A stretch of 64,000 bases of DNA, from the sequence record PZ386961.1; one strand, written 5' to 3'. Made by a program: the position numbers and the translations under genes. This document shows positions 44,645-63,796 of this stretch, one piece after another (within the stretch, counting starts at the first letter, position 1; each line of letters opens with the position of its first letter). This stretch comes from a phage. The notes beneath the pieces are model-generated. The model saw only the letters and a program-made list of their open reading frames with translations. It was not told where the DNA came from and did not search any database.

Positions 44645-46261
44645 TCAACGTCTAAGCCCCTCATATGGGTTTCCTCTCACTAAGTCTGTGTGAGCACCCA
44701 TTGATGGTGGCTTGAATAATTTAACTTCGTTAAGACTGTTGAAAGCATCACTGGTAGCATCCACTTGGTCATCTTTAGTTTTACCATCACCACAAAAACC
44801 TTCAAGTTCTTGAAAGTAAGCTTCGTTCCAACTACCTCTCAAGACTTTTACAAGTCCAGCTTCAGAAGCAGCAGAAAACCCCGCAAATCGGGTAACTTTG
44901 TCTTTATTTGTTGGTTTAGCTCTTGCTCGATAACCTTTCTCGGCAAGTTTCCTGATGAGGGATGTTGCGTAGGATTTACCAGCAGCGCCTGGGTCTTGAG
45001 GGATAAAAATACCAGTTCGCTTACCGTCACTTTCAGCAGTCAAATTAATTTGTGTTTCGACTCCAGAGGGTCTATCTCTAAATCTTACTACATCAATGAT
45101 ATAATAGCAACCGTCTTTTTTAGATTTACCCATCTTAACACCTGCTGTCCAGTCTGGATTAGGGTTAATCTCAGATGGTAAAGTTGCTGCTAAGTCCCAT
45201 GCTCTGACATCAAATACATCTTCTGGGAGTGAATCAACAATTTCACACCATTGTCTTTGCCAATAGTTTGAACCTTCTGCACGAGCCTTCCAGTTACCGA
45301 AACGAAGTCTTGCAACGTTTACAGGGGTGTTGTTTTCCAACTTACCACGATATTTAGGTTCTAGGAAGTCAAGAATTGGGTTATCATCAATCGTACCAGA
45401 GATGAATGTATATGTTTGAGGAATCTCAAGAGGAAACATTTCAAGAATCTTGTCTCTCTCCCAATCAGAAACCATCACACCATCGTTCATTACATACCAA
45501 CGAATACGACCACACTTTTCAGGGTCTGGATAACCTTCTTCATCTAAGAATGGCTCTACCCAATCGTAAATAAAGTGGTCTCTGTCTGGGTTCATAGAAA
45601 TCTTCATGTATGAATCACCTTCAGCACCAGAACGTAGACGGGTTTGTAGGTATGAAATCTGTGAAGCAGAGAAGTGTGTACCTTCGTCAAAGTAAATAGC
45701 TGAGTATTCAATACCCTGATGACCTTCAGCGTGCTTTTCAAGTTCTAGGTAGGTAAACTTGATAGTTGCCCCAGAAGGGAATGTGATAGTCATTTTCTGC
45801 TCGTGAGGAATCCCACCAAACTTACCAAATAGTTTCTTTGCAGCAGGCCATAAACCACCTTGTAGCTGTGTTGTATTTCGACGGAAATATACAGCATTAT
45901 AGTTAGGGTCTTCAATAAATCTTAAAGAGTCCATTAACAATGCAGCAGTTTTACCAGCACCAGCAGCACCACCATAAAGAACCAAGTCAGCATTAGTATT
46001 TAAAAAGACCTCTTGAGAACCCGGCTGAGGGGCTACATAATTCTTATCAGTCATCAATTTAAAGATAAGGCGAACTTGGTCTGGTGTGTATCTTAATAAA
46101 GTCAGAATTTGAGTTGGAAGGAATTTAGAGGGGTCTTTACCGAATGATTTGATAATTTCTTTTACTTCATCAGAAAGCCCCAACTCTCCAGCTAGGACTT
46201 TCCTAACATCTTCCACTCGCTTCTGCTTAACAGCATTTAAGTCCATTAAGCGCCTCCGCAA
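44645..46261 (-). CDS. terminase large subunit
   Basis: Walker A LYGGAAGAGKTAAL, C-terminal nuclease-like region; followed by portal. Confidence 0.85.
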   Translation of the reverse strand: MRRRLMDLNAVKQKRVEDVRKVLAGELGLSDEVKEIIKSFGKDPSKFLPTQILTLLRYTPDQVRLIFKLMTDKNYVAPQPGSQEVFLNTNADLVLYGGAAGAGKTAALLMDSLRFIEDPNYNAVYFRRNTTQLQGGLWPAAKKLFGKFGGIPHEQKMTITFPSGATIKFTYLELEKHAEGHQGIEYSAIYFDEGTHFSASQISYLQTRLRSGAEGDSYMKISMNPDRDHFIYDWVEPFLDEEGYPDPEKCGRIRWYVMNDGVMVSDWERDKILEMFPLEIPQTYTFISGTIDDNPILDFLEPKYRGKLENNTPVNVARLRFGNWKARAEGSNYWQRQWCEIVDSLPEDVFDVRAWDLAATLPSEINPNPDWTAGVKMGKSKKDGCYYIIDVVRFRDRPSGVETQINLTAESDGKRTGIFIPQDPGAAGKSYATSLIRKLAEKGYRARAKPTNKDKVTRFAGFSAASEAGLVKVLRGSWNEAYFQELEGFCGDGKTKDDQVDATSDAFNSLNEVKLFKPPSMGAHTDLVRGNPYEGLRR

Positions 46262-52079: not shown

Positions 52080-53495
52080 TTACCAGATATAACGGTCAAT
52101 CATTACTGCTTTGAGCATTACACTGATTGGGTCAAACTTCTCACCACCAAGCAGAGCTTTTAAAGTGGCTGGAGAGAACCCTGATACCATTGCTACACCG
52201 TTATCCTTAATAGATACTTCGCAAGTGCCATTACGGTTTGCTAAGTACCAGAATACCAGTTGTGGCATCTCATATCCAGATTTTTCGTACTTATCTCGAA
52301 TTGCTTCAAAGTTTGTACGACCATTAGCACCATCAACCTGATTAAACTCCATATCAGAGAAGATAATAAGCTTACTTGGCATATCTTTCTGAGTCAAGTT
52401 GTTTCTTTTACCTGTTTCAAGAATGCGGTCAAAAGCTGCTTGTAAGTTAGTTGAGCCATATTCAACGTGTCGCATCACCTGACGATGACGGTTTCGTAAA
52501 TCACCACTCAGTTCGATGAAGTGAGGGTTTGTCGAATAAACCATCAACTCATTCTTAAAGCAACCTGTATTGCGTTCTGCTACATACAAGGCAAGTGATA
52601 CACCAATATCCAGAGCAGTAATGGAGCCAAAATTCACCCAAGACATTGAACTTGATACATCAGACATACACAAGATGTTTTCACCTTCTGCCATCCAGTT
52701 TGGTAGTGCTTTCCACTGCTCATTAGCAACATCTGCATTACCATACTTGACAGATTTAATCACATCGTATGGGTAAACAGCACCAGCGTTAATCTTAGTC
52801 TCACCTTTTGATAAGGACTCGATGTAAGCTTTGTAACGCTCTCCATCTTTACGGTTAAACAGTTTTTGGTAACGTGCAGCAGCAAGTGAAGGAATCTTAC
52901 TGTAGTCAATCTTACCAAACTCATTAGCAGAGATTTTTTGCTCAACTGTATCAGATAGTGCAGACAACAGTGTGCGGTACTCTTTCTCACTCAAGTTGGC
53001 AAACTTGCAGAAACGTTTTACAAACTGCTTATGACGTGGTTTGACTCGTGGTAACCACTTAGCCGCCAAACCTGCTGTTGCAGGGTCTAGTAATGCTGCT
53101 TCTAAATGCTTGAAGGCATCTGTCTCGAAACGAGTACCTACAAAGATTTTGAAGTCATCAAAACGACCAAGTTCTGCAATCTTATCCATAATGCGAAGAA
53201 CCTGCGTAGGCTCTAAAACTTTATCTTCAATTGCTTGAAGCAAAACAGTTCTGAAGGCTTTACGCTCACCCATACCTTCTCGTACATCTCGCATATGAAG
53301 CAAAATACGAACTGCAACATCAACATCCTCACGCAAAGCTTTGTAGAACAAGTCTGGTAAGATTTCTACATTGCTACGGCTTGAACCAGCAGCTTTGTAA
53401 AAGTCTACAAGAGCAGACATTGATGAAGTATGGTTTACAGCACCATTTTCAGTTCGACCTGCATGAAGGTGCGCATGTTTAAATAATTCGCTCAT
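52080..53495 (-). CDS. vWA-domain protein with helical N-terminal domain (Ro60/TROVE-like or DUF2828-like)
   Basis: C-terminal MIDAS motif in ILCMSDVSSSMSW (DxSxS) and downstream IIFSDMEF; N-terminal about 270 aa helical. Confidence 0.5.
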   Translation of the reverse strand: MSELFKHAHLHAGRTENGAVNHTSSMSALVDFYKAAGSSRSNVEILPDLFYKALREDVDVAVRILLHMRDVREGMGERKAFRTVLLQAIEDKVLEPTQVLRIMDKIAELGRFDDFKIFVGTRFETDAFKHLEAALLDPATAGLAAKWLPRVKPRHKQFVKRFCKFANLSEKEYRTLLSALSDTVEQKISANEFGKIDYSKIPSLAAARYQKLFNRKDGERYKAYIESLSKGETKINAGAVYPYDVIKSVKYGNADVANEQWKALPNWMAEGENILCMSDVSSSMSWVNFGSITALDIGVSLALYVAERNTGCFKNELMVYSTNPHFIELSGDLRNRHRQVMRHVEYGSTNLQAAFDRILETGKRNNLTQKDMPSKLIIFSDMEFNQVDGANGRTNFEAIRDKYEKSGYEMPQLVFWYLANRNGTCEVSIKDNGVAMVSGFSPATLKALLGGEKFDPISVMLKAVMIDRYIW

Positions 53496-55321: not shown

Positions 55322-55576
55322 ATGAGTAGATGGCCTGAAGAGGATATTACACCAACTGCCGAGCAACCTACCTATAACCCAGACATTAAACTCCCAGATT
55401 CAGATAAGTTATTATACCCAATGTTCCACATTGTTGGGCTTGGTACGTTTCTTATGGATATCCAGTATGTAATTGGTAAGGGTTATAAAGTTGAAGGTAT
55501 TGTTGTTGGTGATGTGTCTCCACAACATAAAGGCTATTTCAGATTAAACGCACGTTTAGAGGCTAAAAAGAAATGA
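55322..55576 (+). CDS. hypothetical protein, paralog of the N-terminal domain of the Ig-like repeat protein
   Basis: Start at ATG 55322 after GGAG; WPEEDI...DSDKLLY...FLMDIQYVI..LNARLEAKK aligns with N-terminus of 55573..56709. Confidence 0.45.
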   Translation: MSRWPEEDITPTAEQPTYNPDIKLPDSDKLLYPMFHIVGLGTFLMDIQYVIGKGYKVEGIVVGDVSPQHKGYFRLNARLEAKKK

Positions 55577-56709
55577 TTAAAGCAAAGACTTACCCAGACT
55601 TCAAAGAGTTTGTAAAGGGCTTCGTTGCAAATGTAAAGGCTGGTAAGAGATATGATTTTAGAACATATCAAGAGGCTATTTTGCCACTTACTTATAGTTC
55701 GTATTGGCCTGAAGCTGATATTGCAGAAGTTGAAGAGTTTGACTACAAACCAGCCTATAAAGTCCCATTTAGTGATGAGTTGCTTTACAGCATCGGTGCT
55801 CAAATGAGAACTTCTGATTTCTTCATGGATTTGCAATATGCAATTATCAATGGTAAAGACGTTGATACTGTTTATTGTGAATGGTTGGCAAGAGTTAAAC
55901 CATTCTCAATGTTAAATGCTAAGTTAAAGGATGCTATCAAACCACCATCAATCACTCAGCAACCAACCAATCAAACAGTAAATGAAGGTGGTGCATTTAC
56001 CTTAAGTATTGTTGCAGTTAATGCCACAGGGTATCAGTGGAAGAAGGGTGGTGAAGATATCACTAGTGCTACCTCTGCAACTTACACAAAACAGTCAGTG
56101 GTTCCTTCTGACGCTGGTTCATATACCTGTGTTGTATCTGGGGGGGGTGGGACAAGTGTCACATCAGATGCAGCAACAGTTACTGTGAATGCCTTACCAG
56201 TGATTACCAAGCAACCTTCTAATCAGACCGTTAATGAAGGTGGAAACATCAGCTTAGCAGTTACTGCAACAGGTGCAACTGGTTACCAATGGAAGAAAGA
56301 TGGTTCCGACATCCCTTCAGCTACAAAGGCCACATATAGCAAATCTGGTGCACTTCCAGCAGATGCTGGCTCATACACTTGCGTTGTAACAGGTGCTGGA
56401 GGTTCGGTTACTTCTAACCCTGCAACTATCACAGTAAACGCACTACCAGTGATTACTCAGCAACCAACAAATCAAGAAATCACAGAAGGTGAAACCTTGA
56501 CACTAAGTGTTGTAGCTACTGGTGCAACAGGCTATCAGTGGAAGAAAGATAACGTAAACATTCCTAGTGCAACTGCTGCAACTTACACCAAAGAAAGTGC
56601 AACGAGTGCAGATGATACTGGTTCATACACTTGTGTAGTTACTGGTGCAGGAGGTTCAGTAACCTCTAATGCCGCAACAGTTACTGTTAATCCAGTAGGA
56701 GGTGAATAA
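55573..56709 (+). CDS. Ig-like (I-set/Big-type) repeat protein
   Basis: Three tandem ~90-aa repeats with QPxNQTVNEGG...GATGYQWKK...SATxATYTK...AGSYTCVV; contains a G8 homopolymer at 56140-56147. Confidence 0.6.
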   Translation: MIKAKTYPDFKEFVKGFVANVKAGKRYDFRTYQEAILPLTYSSYWPEADIAEVEEFDYKPAYKVPFSDELLYSIGAQMRTSDFFMDLQYAIINGKDVDTVYCEWLARVKPFSMLNAKLKDAIKPPSITQQPTNQTVNEGGAFTLSIVAVNATGYQWKKGGEDITSATSATYTKQSVVPSDAGSYTCVVSGGGGTSVTSDAATVTVNALPVITKQPSNQTVNEGGNISLAVTATGATGYQWKKDGSDIPSATKATYSKSGALPADAGSYTCVVTGAGGSVTSNPATITVNALPVITQQPTNQEITEGETLTLSVVATGATGYQWKKDNVNIPSATAATYTKESATSADDTGSYTCVVTGAGGSVTSNAATVTVNPVGGE

Positions 56710-61272: not shown

Positions 61273-61821
61273 ATGGAAAAAGATAACTTAAAAGATGTTG
61301 AAGGTAACTATCTAGTCCTTGACTGGAAGGATGTTCGGGAAGCACTCTCTGAAGAAAATCTTGACTGGTTCGAACAAATTATCTTTGCAGTACGGCATAA
61401 CCGAGAAGTTGAAAATGGTAAAGAGCCACTTGAAGGAATATTTGTAGAGAAGTCTTATCCGTTCTATGAAGACACTTTGCAGAAAGTTAAAATGTACTTT
61501 AAACAGAAGAACCGTAAAGTGGTCACTATGGTATCTCTTGGTGGACAGAGTATGTCTGTGATGGAAGATATCAACCCTAAGAGACCGAGTAAAGGCGTTT
61601 GTATAAAAATCACAGGTCATGAAGAGTATATCTCAGTAGATGACTTTAGAGCATTCTGTAGTGGTTCTTGTGTCTTTAATGGTTTTCACTATGATATCCG
61701 AGTGTACCCAATCAAGGGAGATGATATCATGATGCAGGTATTCGATAATAACAATGGATTTACTCATTTTTATCAGACAACCAAGTCATCATTGAAAACA
61801 GTTCTGGAAACACTGATTTAA
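61273..61821 (+). CDS. hypothetical protein
   Basis: Start at internal ATG 61273; 182 aa. Confidence 0.45.
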   Translation: MEKDNLKDVEGNYLVLDWKDVREALSEENLDWFEQIIFAVRHNREVENGKEPLEGIFVEKSYPFYEDTLQKVKMYFKQKNRKVVTMVSLGGQSMSVMEDINPKRPSKGVCIKITGHEEYISVDDFRAFCSGSCVFNGFHYDIRVYPIKGDDIMMQVFDNNNGFTHFYQTTKSSLKTVLETLI

Positions 61822-61832
61822 AATATCTTAAG

Positions 61833-61860
61833 AGCCTCCTTAATCGGGGGCTTTTTAATT
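61833..61860 (+). terminator. rho-independent terminator-like hairpin plus T5
   Basis: agcctcc...gggggct stem (one G-U) followed by ttttt after last plus-strand gene. Confidence 0.45.
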
Positions 61861-63393
61861 TTTATAAAATTTATCGGTTGTCCCAACCGCTGGGTCACCA
61901 TCATATGTGAATAAAATATCTACCCTTCTTAACAACCTTCTTAATCTTACTCTCTATATAGTTATATAGTACTATATAGTATCTTAGTATCTATCTAGTG
62001 GTCTTAATAGCCCCTCTGTATAGCCCTTCTAAACACTCTTCTAACAAGCCTTCTTAACAACCTATACAATCACCTTAACCATCTCTCTATACGCTCTTAG
62101 AAGCCTCTATACACCTCTTAATCTCTAGGTAAGCTATGTTACCCTCTATAGGTGTTCACTAGGAAATACTAAACCTCTATATAGACTGTTTTAACAAACT
62201 TAACAGGAATATCTTTACAGACCTTATCTCACAAGGTCTAACACGGTACTAACAAGGTATCTTATAAGCCTGTTTATGCCTGTATTTTTAAAAGACTGTA
62301 TAGGTAATTATTCAGATTTTTAAAATTTTTATAAAATAGGACTATCAAGTCATTTTTTAGGGTCTTTGAAGGAACTCAAAAATATCTGTAGAAGATGTAT
62401 ATCTGCTTGGTAGCCCTTAACATCCCTGTAACATCCCCTTTGCAGAATTTTAAAGTATCCTTAACAATCTCTTAACAACTCTCTCAAGTTCTTAACATCT
62501 CTTCAGAGGTCTTAACAGATTCTTAACAGAACTAACAAGGTTGTAACAAGTTCTTAACAGTTGATACATGGGCTTTACAGAATCTTAACAGATGACTAAC
62601 AAGAGCTAACAAGTTAATTTTAAAGAGTTATTTTGTTAAGATAATTAACAAGTTTCTAACAAGTGTTTAATCTTTTTAACAAGCTATTAACATGGTCACT
62701 ACTCTTTTCTTATCGTTCCCTTTGCTTCTTAGTGATTCTTTAAACATACCTCTTAAAAGCTCTCTATAGCTCCTTGTAAGCTCTTTTAAGCCTCTTCCTA
62801 GTATTTACCCCTCAACTGTATGGATAGCTCTTTATAGGGCTTTACAGAGGCTTTTAAGGATATGCCAAAGACTCTTACAAGGCTTTTACGTGGTCTTAAC
62901 AGAGATTTAACAAGGGGCTAACAAGTCTCTAACAAGCATAACTATGTAGGGTTTGTTAAGAAATTGTTAAGGGGGCTAGCATTTACGTAACTTTTAAGCT
63001 ACTTTCTAAGTAACTTTAAAGCCCCTATAACATACTTTTTAGTGACTATCAAGGGGGTTGTTTAGTTATTCACAAGATACTAATCAGCCTATAAGCTTAC
63101 ACCCTTATAAGATTCTTTTAAGGCTCTGGGAAGCTCTATAAAGGGCTTTTTAGAGTGGGTTAATATGATTGCTTAAGTTAGGTTGATAAGGCTGTTATAG
63201 AGCTTTATAGAGCGTTTTAGTGGTTGCCCTTCCCTTTCGGGTTATGGGCTTTTATTTAAGTTGATTTGATAAGAGGTTATAGAGTAGACTATAGAGTTAT
63301 TGCTTTTAAGGTACGGGATAGATTCTATCGAATTAGTGGGATAGATTCTGGAAAGGGAAGGGAAAGGGTTGTATAGAGGCTATTACAGAGACG
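61861..63393. repeat. 1.5 kb repeat-dense non-coding region (CTTAACAG/CTAACAAG iterons, CTCTATAG and TATATAGT repeats, palindromes)
   Basis: No ORF of 60 aa or more; many short direct repeats read directly. Confidence 0.6.
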
Positions 63394-63443
63394 TAAAAAA
63401 GCCCCTATGAGATAGATTCTATCGAATCAATATAAAGGGGCTG
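63394..63443 (-). terminator. rho-independent terminator (agcccct...aggggct plus T6) with palindromic loop GATTCtatcGAATC
   Basis: Minus-strand stem followed by T-run downstream of 63481..63729. Confidence 0.5.
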
Positions 63444-63480
63444 TAAAGGTATCTGGGGCTAAATAGCCCCGTTGCGTCGA

Positions 63481-63729
63481 TTAGTTGTAACCTTGTTTGC
63501 TGTAGTACAGAGAGATAATCAAGTCACCCCAATAATGGTAGTGAGATTCCTCGTTTATGGCTTCTTTTACAGCGTCCTTCCAAAAGTCATCGGTAGGGCT
63601 ATAATCTGGTATCACCTGCTGAATCAGCATTTTGATAAGGTCAAAGGTATTGTCTGTTCCACCGATATCGAATTTTGCATCAAGTTGGTGGCAGCCATAA
63701 GCATTAACAGTTACGCGGATAGTTGACAT
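63481..63729 (-). CDS. hypothetical protein
   Basis: 82-aa minus-strand ORF followed by terminator; preferred over overlapping plus-strand ORF. Confidence 0.45.
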   Translation of the reverse strand: MSTIRVTVNAYGCHQLDAKFDIGGTDNTFDLIKMLIQQVIPDYSPTDDFWKDAVKEAINEESHYHYWGDLIISLYYSKQGYN

Positions 63730-63796
63730 AATTTAGATTCTCCAGTTTAGGACTTTACTTAGTGGGAAGGTTAATCCCTCCCCGTTGATTAGTAAT

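Follow-up and report, generated by a model that had tools for sequence, protein, structure and literature searches.

Why does a phage genome keep more than 1.6 kb of repeat-rich DNA, without an evident gene, between two groups of genes that run towards each other? The question is raised by positions 61822-63480 (1.66 kb, here called the gap) of a 64,000-nucleotide stretch of phage DNA from sequence record PZ386961.1, the whole of which is called the window. A reading made from the sequence only had proposed a replication origin, a packaging site or genome-end region, or a regulator binding array. In this study we conclude that the gap is probably the concatemer-junction or genome-terminus region of a Felix O1-like myovirus. 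Its role as a genome terminus is well supported by the ends of related genomes. The gap would in addition be a packaging-recognition platform, in which case its phased repeats are, by analogy with the CCTAAAG arrays of T7, probably a landing pad for the DNA-packaging machinery; that the binder of these repeats acts in packaging is what we infer.

The window derives from a Felixounavirus (a Felix O1- or wV8-like myovirus), as the segment 61500-64000 matches 257 phage records, the best of them with approx. 90-92% identity. Genes on the + strand stop at 61821 and genes on the - strand stop at 63481. An open reading frame (ORF) scan detected no ORF of 40 aa or more from 61821 to 63472, and the longest ORF inside the gap comprised 36 aa. 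A long non-coding gap between convergent units, as described in the sequence-only reading, was thereby borne out. The gap is conserved in wV8, Felix O1 and other records, which carry no annotation there. It is not discussed in the Felix O1 and wV8 genome papers, and the PhageMaP paper on the Felixounavirus Bas63 reports no data for this region.

A sensitive search with the non-coding DNA alone revealed several GenBank records that start or end inside the gap. In Pr103Blw (MW481326), positions 1-581 and 87841-88421 are annotated as a 'short direct terminal repeat region', and this 581-bp direct terminal repeat (DTR) was called by PhageTerm (PMC8303462). It aligns to 62409-62976 of the window, where one 11-bp unit is lacking. 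Three further records were exactly redundant between start and end, with the same first and last nucleotides as Pr103Blw, over 579 bp in CRP22, 580 bp in E9 and 613 bp in Ro111lw. The same sequence was thus found at both ends in four close relatives, and for the E9 group the DTR was again called by PhageTerm (PMC11737134). These four records come from at least three laboratories and two of them are stated PhageTerm DTR calls. The borders of the relatives map to the nucleotide at 62409 and 62976 of the window. In addition, the pEP20 record has precisely the equivalent of 62409 as its first base and that of 62408 as its last. Many other records have the upstream gene approx. 1.2 kb from the record start, from which we conclude that they were opened at the same point.

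The identical border nucleotides in the four records and in pEP20 argue for fixed ends. Headful packaging from a pac site was not indicated in the four relatives, which show two fixed borders and an exact repeat at a constant position. Since the termini of the relatives lie at the equivalents of 62409 and 62976, the gap can be read as a concatemer junction consisting of a left flank, a 568-bp DTR and a right flank. The proposal of a genome end or packaging site was in this way strongly supported, because the termini of relatives, among them the two PhageTerm calls, fall inside the gap. The original Felix O1 paper had already inferred 'short terminal repeats' by comparing pulsed-field gel electrophoresis with the sequence length; by convention, though, rIIA was taken as the start of the genome. 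The records of Mushroom and Moogle, which also begin at rIIA, were uninformative on the termini. Most Felixounavirus GenBank records were opened at arbitrary points or at rIIA.

Both borders carry a conserved sequence. The sequences across the two borders were invariant in 12 of 12 genomes and were also present in phiSUSP1. The motif CCCTTAACA occurs only twice in the 64 kb, at 62414 on the + strand and at 62965-62973 on the - strand, hence as an inverted pair, 5 nt and 3 nt inside the left and the right border, respectively. A conserved sequence at the presumed cut sites was accordingly found, given by the invariant borders together with this unique inverted pair. Most relatives contain three inverted units at the right border, while the window contains two, one 11-bp unit fewer. 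Hairpins at the borders, as in the model for the right end of T7, were considered and rejected (fold z = -0.6 and +1.9).

The DTR itself is occupied by short repeats on one strand. TAACA was found 29 times in the gap, whereas 2.7 copies were expected from the rest of the window, with a strand ratio of 29:5. By the same comparison CTAACAAG was found 8 times against 0.04 expected, and TATATAGT was seen 3 times in the gap. For YTAACARG, 12 of the 30 matches in the window lie in the gap, all 12 on the + strand. A position weight matrix built from the TAACA sites detected 24 units in 62414-62973, with 18 in 62414-62695 and 6 in 62893-62973. The earlier count of about 20 octamers at 62450-62700 and 62860-62950 agrees with this, and all repeat elements named in the sequence-only reading were recovered at their positions, each above chance.

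The units follow the helical turn of DNA. Base autocorrelation of the gap peaked at lags of 10-11, 20-23 and 31-35 (z up to 7.6 against control windows of the same size), while coding control windows displayed a 3-bp period only. Array 1 had its best period at 10.3 bp (R = 0.82, null 99th percentile 0.65). All 21 TAACA cores of the DTR, 17 from array 1 and four from array 2, are on the + strand, and they were phase-coherent at approx. 10.4 bp over 520 bp (R = 0.79, null 99th percentile 0.64). Spacings of 9, 20 and 31 bp occur beside the modal 11 bp and hold the phase of approx. 10.4 bp, which places the sites on one face of the helix.

Comparison between genomes separated the units from the DNA between them. 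In an alignment of 12 genomes of Felixounavirus and Mooglevirus the cores were conserved at 0.98 and the linkers at 0.84 (p = 1e-8). The most common indel longer than 2 nt was 11 bp, which is no multiple of 3. Conserved cores, drifting linkers and 11-bp indels are incompatible with a coding function and typical of binding sites, and we infer that the YTAACAR repeats are bound by protein. The length of the DTR from border to border followed the same unit. Among 32 distinct genomes, including metagenomic contigs, it was approx. 569, 580, 591, 602, 613, 623 bp and so on, quantised at 11.0 bp (Rayleigh R = 0.80; highest value in 2000 random trials, 0.67), and each genome of this set contained 18-23 cores on the + strand.

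A structured non-coding RNA was not supported: no curated family matched, 11-bp indels were frequent and the borders lacked stable folds. An E-value search of the gap against Rfam resulted in merely two sub-threshold matches at chance level.

A second motif, CTCTATA, forms arrays on both sides of the DTR. Twelve of its 14 matches in the window are in the gap, and a k-mer count against the rest of the window gave 7 copies in the gap where 0.07 were expected. Neither CTCTATA nor YTAACARG clusters elsewhere in the 64 kb. The left flank contained 3-5 copies on the + strand and no copies on the - strand in all 13 genomes examined, and the mirror arrangement of the left and right arrays was kept in the same 13 of 13. 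In the window, the midpoint of the innermost copies is at approx. 62688 and the centre of the DTR at 62692, an offset of approx. 4 bp. The GC skew of the + strand flips across the gap and mirrors this layout, from -0.24 in the C-rich left flank over -0.12 to +0.27 in the G-rich right flank. The left flank has a mean conservation of 0.91 in the 12 genomes. In the virion, the left flank is predicted to be located just inside the right-end copy of the DTR and the right flank just inside the left-end copy. Because the arrays are mirror images, the two mature ends would look alike when followed inwards: a border element, the DTR, approx. 205-290 bp of flank and then a TATAGAG array.

The gap is also conserved beyond the genus. 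In comparisons with Mooglevirus and Suspvirus, identity was 73-84% for each of its three parts and 54-68% for the neighbouring genes. The gap of phiSUSP1 (Suspvirus; L019, 4119-5812) was 89% identical to that of Michonne (Mooglevirus; L014, 1402-3003), with only 71% identity in the upstream gene. This suggests either very strong constraint or an exchange of the terminal region between genera. We withdrew the idea that the phiSUSP1 gap is compositionally foreign, as its local flanks have a GC content of 37-39% and the gap 35%.

Table 1. Coordinates of the terminus-related features in the window, with strand and basis or remark.
Feature	Position	Strand	Basis or remark
Predicted direct terminal repeat (DTR), 568 bp	62409-62976		Aligned to the 581-bp DTR annotated in Pr103Blw
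Left border element GGTAGCCCTTAACA, predicted left chromosome end	62409-62422	+	27 nt TGTATATCTGCTT/GGTAGCCCTTAACA (slash, border) invariant in 12 genomes
Array 1, 17 TAACA cores, unit YTAACAR, modal spacing 11 bp	62418-62694	+	
Array 2, four units, spacing exactly 11 bp, in phase with array 1	62893-62937	+	
Pair of inverted units with the right border element at its end (GCCCCCTTAACA, - strand), predicted right end	62953-62976	-	
Left unique flank of the junction	61822-62408		61856-62408 without the terminator; outside the terminal redundancy of Pr103Blw, CRP22, E9 and Ro111lw
Right unique flank	62977-63480		62977-63394 without the terminators; alignment to relatives, conservation, GC skew
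Five CTCTATA units, left flank	61952-62181	+	
Five CTCTATA units, right flank, mirror image of the left array	63196-63378	-	
AT-rich block, conserved, 24% GC, just beyond the left border of the DTR	62272-62371		50-nt GC windows; conservation 0.92-0.93
Large terminase subunit (TerL)	44645-46261	-	Pfam Terminase_6N 2e-43, Terminase_6C 4e-33
Rho-independent terminator, end of the + strand operon	61830-61855	+	Terminator scan; fold of 61822-61900 z = -3.1
Terminator hairpin followed by a T-run, end of the - strand operon	63397-63441	-	DNA fold of 63385-63480 (-) z = -4.3
Second hairpin, end of the - strand operon	63456-63471	-	
Palindromic mini-insert GATAGATTCTATCGAAT, copy 1	63317-63333		Presence varies among relatives
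Palindromic mini-insert GATAGATTCTATCGAAT, copy 2	63411-63427		In the loop of the - strand terminator hairpin

In the general and accepted DTR route a fixed position of the concatemer is recognised, staggered nicks are made and 3' extension duplicates the repeat (PMC5557969). Applied to the window, each concatemer junction is predicted to hold one copy of the DTR and the virion DNA one copy at both ends, so that the virion DNA would start at 62409 and end at 62976 one genome length further on. The terminase would recognise the junction and nick it at both borders, each on a different strand, after which 3' extension would duplicate the DTR. TerL, encoded approx. 16 kb from the gap, is the presumed cutter at the DTR borders. 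The 21 YTAACAR units, on the same strand and one helical turn apart, could offer an oligomeric recognition protein a multi-site platform on one face, and the putative reader of this platform would be a small-terminase-like factor. The inverted CCCTTAACA copies may position the nuclease (TerL) at each cut, on opposite strands. The CTCTATA arrays, approx. 205-290 bp outside the borders, probably belong to the same assembly.

A more specific form of this mechanism is put forward as speculation which we ourselves doubt. A putative small protein might polymerise along the approx. 20 helically phased YTAACAR units as on a modular wrapping platform, with an inverted CCCTTAACA unit as a cap at each end. 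Such a platform, equally tentative, might set the cut sites of the terminase 570-660 bp apart, as a ruler counted in repeats with the CTCTATA arrays as outer clamps. If true, the DTR would represent a packaging signal of a new type, and with it the DNA-recognition subunit used by a large group of therapeutic myoviruses would be identified.

Several observations weigh against a terminus with a packaging platform. The ends of the window phage are placed by homology, at 86-91% identity to the relatives. The symmetry is imperfect, the distance from border to TTAACA being 8 nt on one side and 6 nt on the other. Comparisons with Pfam, PHROGs and PDB sequences revealed neither a small terminase nor a DNA-binding protein near TerL or beside the gap; for the ORFs adjoining the gap and those upstream of TerL they gave just families without assigned function (DUF7217, DUF7338 and several PHROGs) and no PDB relatives. 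TerL itself is assigned to the Pfam family of the T4 type, and among its relatives are phages that package their DNA in other ways. To our knowledge, the function of the analogous arrays of T7 is itself unproven. Finally, a single paper reported a pac-type headful packaging from PhageTerm, for the Felixounavirus SEP1 (PMC13431587), a call without a mapped site, and the SEP1 record was opened inside a gene. The published packaging calls for Felixounavirus are therefore in conflict, headful pac for SEP1 (PMC13431587) and short DTR for the others (PMC8303462, PMC11737134). The results table of the PhageTerm paper contains two samples marked as Nextera libraries without a single called terminus (PMC5557969), and Nextera libraries are a possible explanation of the discordant calls.

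The gap could instead be a replication origin, alone or besides being a terminus. The iterons would then bind an initiator, the AT-rich block would unwind and the mirror arrays would mark a bidirectional origin. We regard this as unlikely, even though the direct repeats do adjoin a conserved block of 24% GC, a feature which is not specific for origins, and the layout is dyad-symmetric about its centre. Two relaxed DnaA-like boxes (TTATTCACA) are found in the flanks, at 61906 (-) and 63066 (+), but the latter overlaps a variant of the TTCACAAG unit, and the DnaA-like TTWTNCACA was not enriched, with 11 matches in the window against 11.5 expected and two of them in the gap. The IHF consensus was not found in the gap. 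The flanking ORFs carry no replication domain, no initiator gene is adjacent, and the genes for polymerase and primase-helicase are approx. 50 kb away. Classical iterons are 17-22 bp long, and the units of the gap, with 11 bp and a core of 6-8 bp, are shorter. The GC-skew check suggested with the sequence-only reading was run, but the skew merely follows gene orientation in the genome, so it was uninformative and cannot locate an origin. For the proposed origin an AT-rich block was found, but no DnaA-box enrichment, IHF site or adjacent initiator, which leaves it weakly supported. The nucleotide-exact match between the arrays and the mapped termini is explained without an origin.

One further point in favour of an origin comes from unrelated viral contigs in IMG/VR (L061 and L090), in which 5-6 TTAACAG units at 11-bp spacing directly follow a perfect DnaA box (TTATCCACA) and give an origin-like look. 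The search that returned them, four TAACAR at 11-bp spacing, matched more than 120 loci. We rejected these as homologues, since the pattern most plausibly selects among many 11-bp tandem arrays and most matches were unrelated short perfect tandem repeats. Other unrelated contigs contained perfect tandem GTTCTTAACAAG (L091-L093), or GTAACAAGGTT preceded by CTCTATATAGG (L064, L068, L070, L077).

Less probable still is a binding array for a phage or host protein outside packaging, which would coat both ends because the DTR is present at both. Its roles, no less doubtful, might be protection from exonuclease, bridging of ends, control of ejection or insulation between the convergent operons. The helical phasing and the conserved cores do indicate protein binding and leave the protein unspecified; both mature ends would also show the same layout. 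Phased 11-bp iterons are bound by small dimeric proteins at plasmid centromeres, e.g. parC of R1. No candidate for a coating protein was found, the strong terminators already insulate the operons, and the unique inverted CCCTTAACA at the exact cut positions points to the cutting machinery. A regulator binding array, the third of the initial proposals, found no specific support: the motifs do not cluster elsewhere and sigma-70-like promoters were not enriched in the gap (8 sites against 6.8 +/- 3.0 in shuffles).

It is highly improbable that the units are degenerate tandem repeats without function, prone to slippage, which have built up in the gap as the one large region of the genome that is non-coding, with the termini there for unrelated reasons. 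In favour of this, 11-bp units are frequently gained and lost, unrelated viral contigs often contain short tandem arrays of 11 bp, and small palindromic inserts come and go in the gap. Against it, the cores are near-invariant while the linkers drift, compensating spacings of 9 and 20 bp uphold the phase of approx. 10.4 bp, conservation across three genera is higher in the gap than in the adjacent genes, and the mirror-image arrangement is kept in 13 genomes.

The other features of the gap concern its operon ends and small inserts. wV8 annotates a terminator at the site homologous to that of the + strand operon, and the GCCCC...GGGGC stem of the - strand terminator is found also in relatives, there without the palindromic insert. 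The two copies of GATAGATTCTATCGAAT pointed out in the sequence-only reading were confirmed as exact. They belong to a palindromic mini-element of 23-27 nt with the core GATAGATTCTATC, often followed by GAAT, whose presence and position in the alignment vary by genome. The window contains a partial third site at 63340-63349; elsewhere the element is found at approx. 62389 in pEP20 and VpaE1, at approx. 63054 in SP2 and, in Michonne, where the gap begins. Its behaviour resembles that of a small mobile insert or of a homing-endonuclease footprint. A second palindromic insert of approx. 22 nt (ATTGGTAACAATACCAAT) is absent from the window and occurs at approx. 62635 in wV8, 63225 in CRP22 and 62725 in VpaE1, and a 32-nt insert with GTTACTTAACAGTAAC was detected at approx. 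62131 in Pr103Blw, CRP22, VpaE1 and SP2. The terminal region thus seems to collect small palindromic insertions.

The inverted pair cccttcccttt/aaagggaaggg noticed earlier, in our analysis CCCTTCCCTTT, is present at 63227-63237 (+) and 63352-63362 (-). A functional hairpin is improbable, as the second arm falls into the part of the gap with the lowest conservation and differs from genome to genome. We rejected the pair as a functional element; it is real, but the second arm is not kept complementary in relatives.

Outside the gap, the segment 63731-63801, between small genes on the - strand, matches two separate places near the right record end of Pr103Blw and is the counterpart of the direct repeats (DR) which the wV8 annotation lists between early genes. 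These repeats are probably early promoter or regulatory cassettes. A sigma-70 scan detected a TTAACA-17-CATAAT site with an upstream TG at 63704-63732. Among the genes of the window, 52080-53495 (-) encodes a 471-aa protein with DUF2828 and DUF7788 and 55573-56709 (+) a 378-aa protein with three immunoglobulin-like domains. In Bas63 a Ro60-like protein (gp130) is encoded directly upstream of the tRNA genes, according to the PhageMaP preprint.

Felix O1-like phages are widely used for typing of Salmonella and E. coli, in biocontrol and in therapy. Fixed and conserved termini would give a simple rule to orient and complete, or re-orient, their genomes, with the left end at ...ATATCTGCTT/GGTAGCCCTTAACA and the right end at ...TGTTAAGGGGGC/TAGC (slash, end of the chromosome). 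The same rule would tell engineers which 1.7 kb to keep intact, and the repeat architecture is a concrete DNA bait for a candidate recognition protein.

Compared with known systems, the gap shares with iteron origins (lambda ori, P1 oriR, pSC101) that direct repeats adjoin an AT-rich segment. It differs from them by its shorter units, by the lack of an adjacent initiator and of DnaA-box enrichment, and by arrays that coincide with mapped ends. Centromeres of the R1 parC/ParR type comprise ten 11-bp iterons on one face of the helix, which are bound cooperatively into a protein-DNA filament. They may serve as a model of how an array like that of the gap is read. The likeness to the gap is one of working principle only, as the gap has no partition genes nearby, is not from a plasmid and has no sequence relationship to parC.

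Multi-site terminase regions are known from lambda cosB (R1-R3 and IHF), SPP1 pacL/pacR and P1 pac, where seven TGATCR hexamers flank the cut. In current models, the repeats beside the cut load an oligomeric small terminase and the DNA is bent or wrapped, which makes these sites, too, a useful guide to how such arrays are read. These sites contain 3-7 elements over 100-200 bp and lead to cohesive or headful ends, whereas the gap contains more than 20 elements over 570 bp with two cut sites predicted 568 bp apart. It also lacks the IHF site and the Dam-type motif when compared with lambda cosB and P1 pac.

The Felixounavirus DTRs in GenBank (Pr103Blw and the record ends of Ro111lw, E9 and CRP22) are homologous to the gap, with 86-91% identity and identical borders. 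A few GenBank annotations and genome reports thus imply the location of the DTR already, and the kind of element is known. These records and papers report the repeat length alone and do not describe internal repeats, border elements or flanking arrays. This inner architecture, with its units in phase, its quantised length, its inverted pair of border elements and its flanking arrays in mirror image, appears to be undescribed in the searchable literature.

T7 and T3, with terminal repeats of 160 and 231 bp, resemble the gap in having a short exact DTR at fixed positions in a non-coding junction. In T7 (NC_001604) the 160-bp repeat lies within 13 copies of CCTAAAG (or 18, if ATAAAG and TTAAAG are counted as variants), which all occupy the same strand (13:0), and a regular 13-bp array is found just inside the left repeat. 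Dense, strand-biased repeats of 7-8 bp in and beside the terminal repeat are hence common to T7 and the gap. Most units of the gap are inside the DTR, while those of T7 are beside it, and their period is approx. 10.4-11 bp, one helical turn, instead of 13 bp. The DTR of the gap is approx. 3.5 times longer, with a length quantised by the number of units, and its flanking arrays consist of a second motif in mirror image, whereas the arrays of T7 all point one way. As far as visible, phage promoters and a phage RNA polymerase are lacking, and the phage, a myovirus, has a TerL of the T4 type, while a small subunit like gp18 was not recognised. As the two junctions have no sequence similarity, we consider the resemblance an analogy of design and not homology or membership of one family. 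For the question of what junction repeat arrays do, which dates back to the T7 sequence, the gap offers a second, independent system beside T7.

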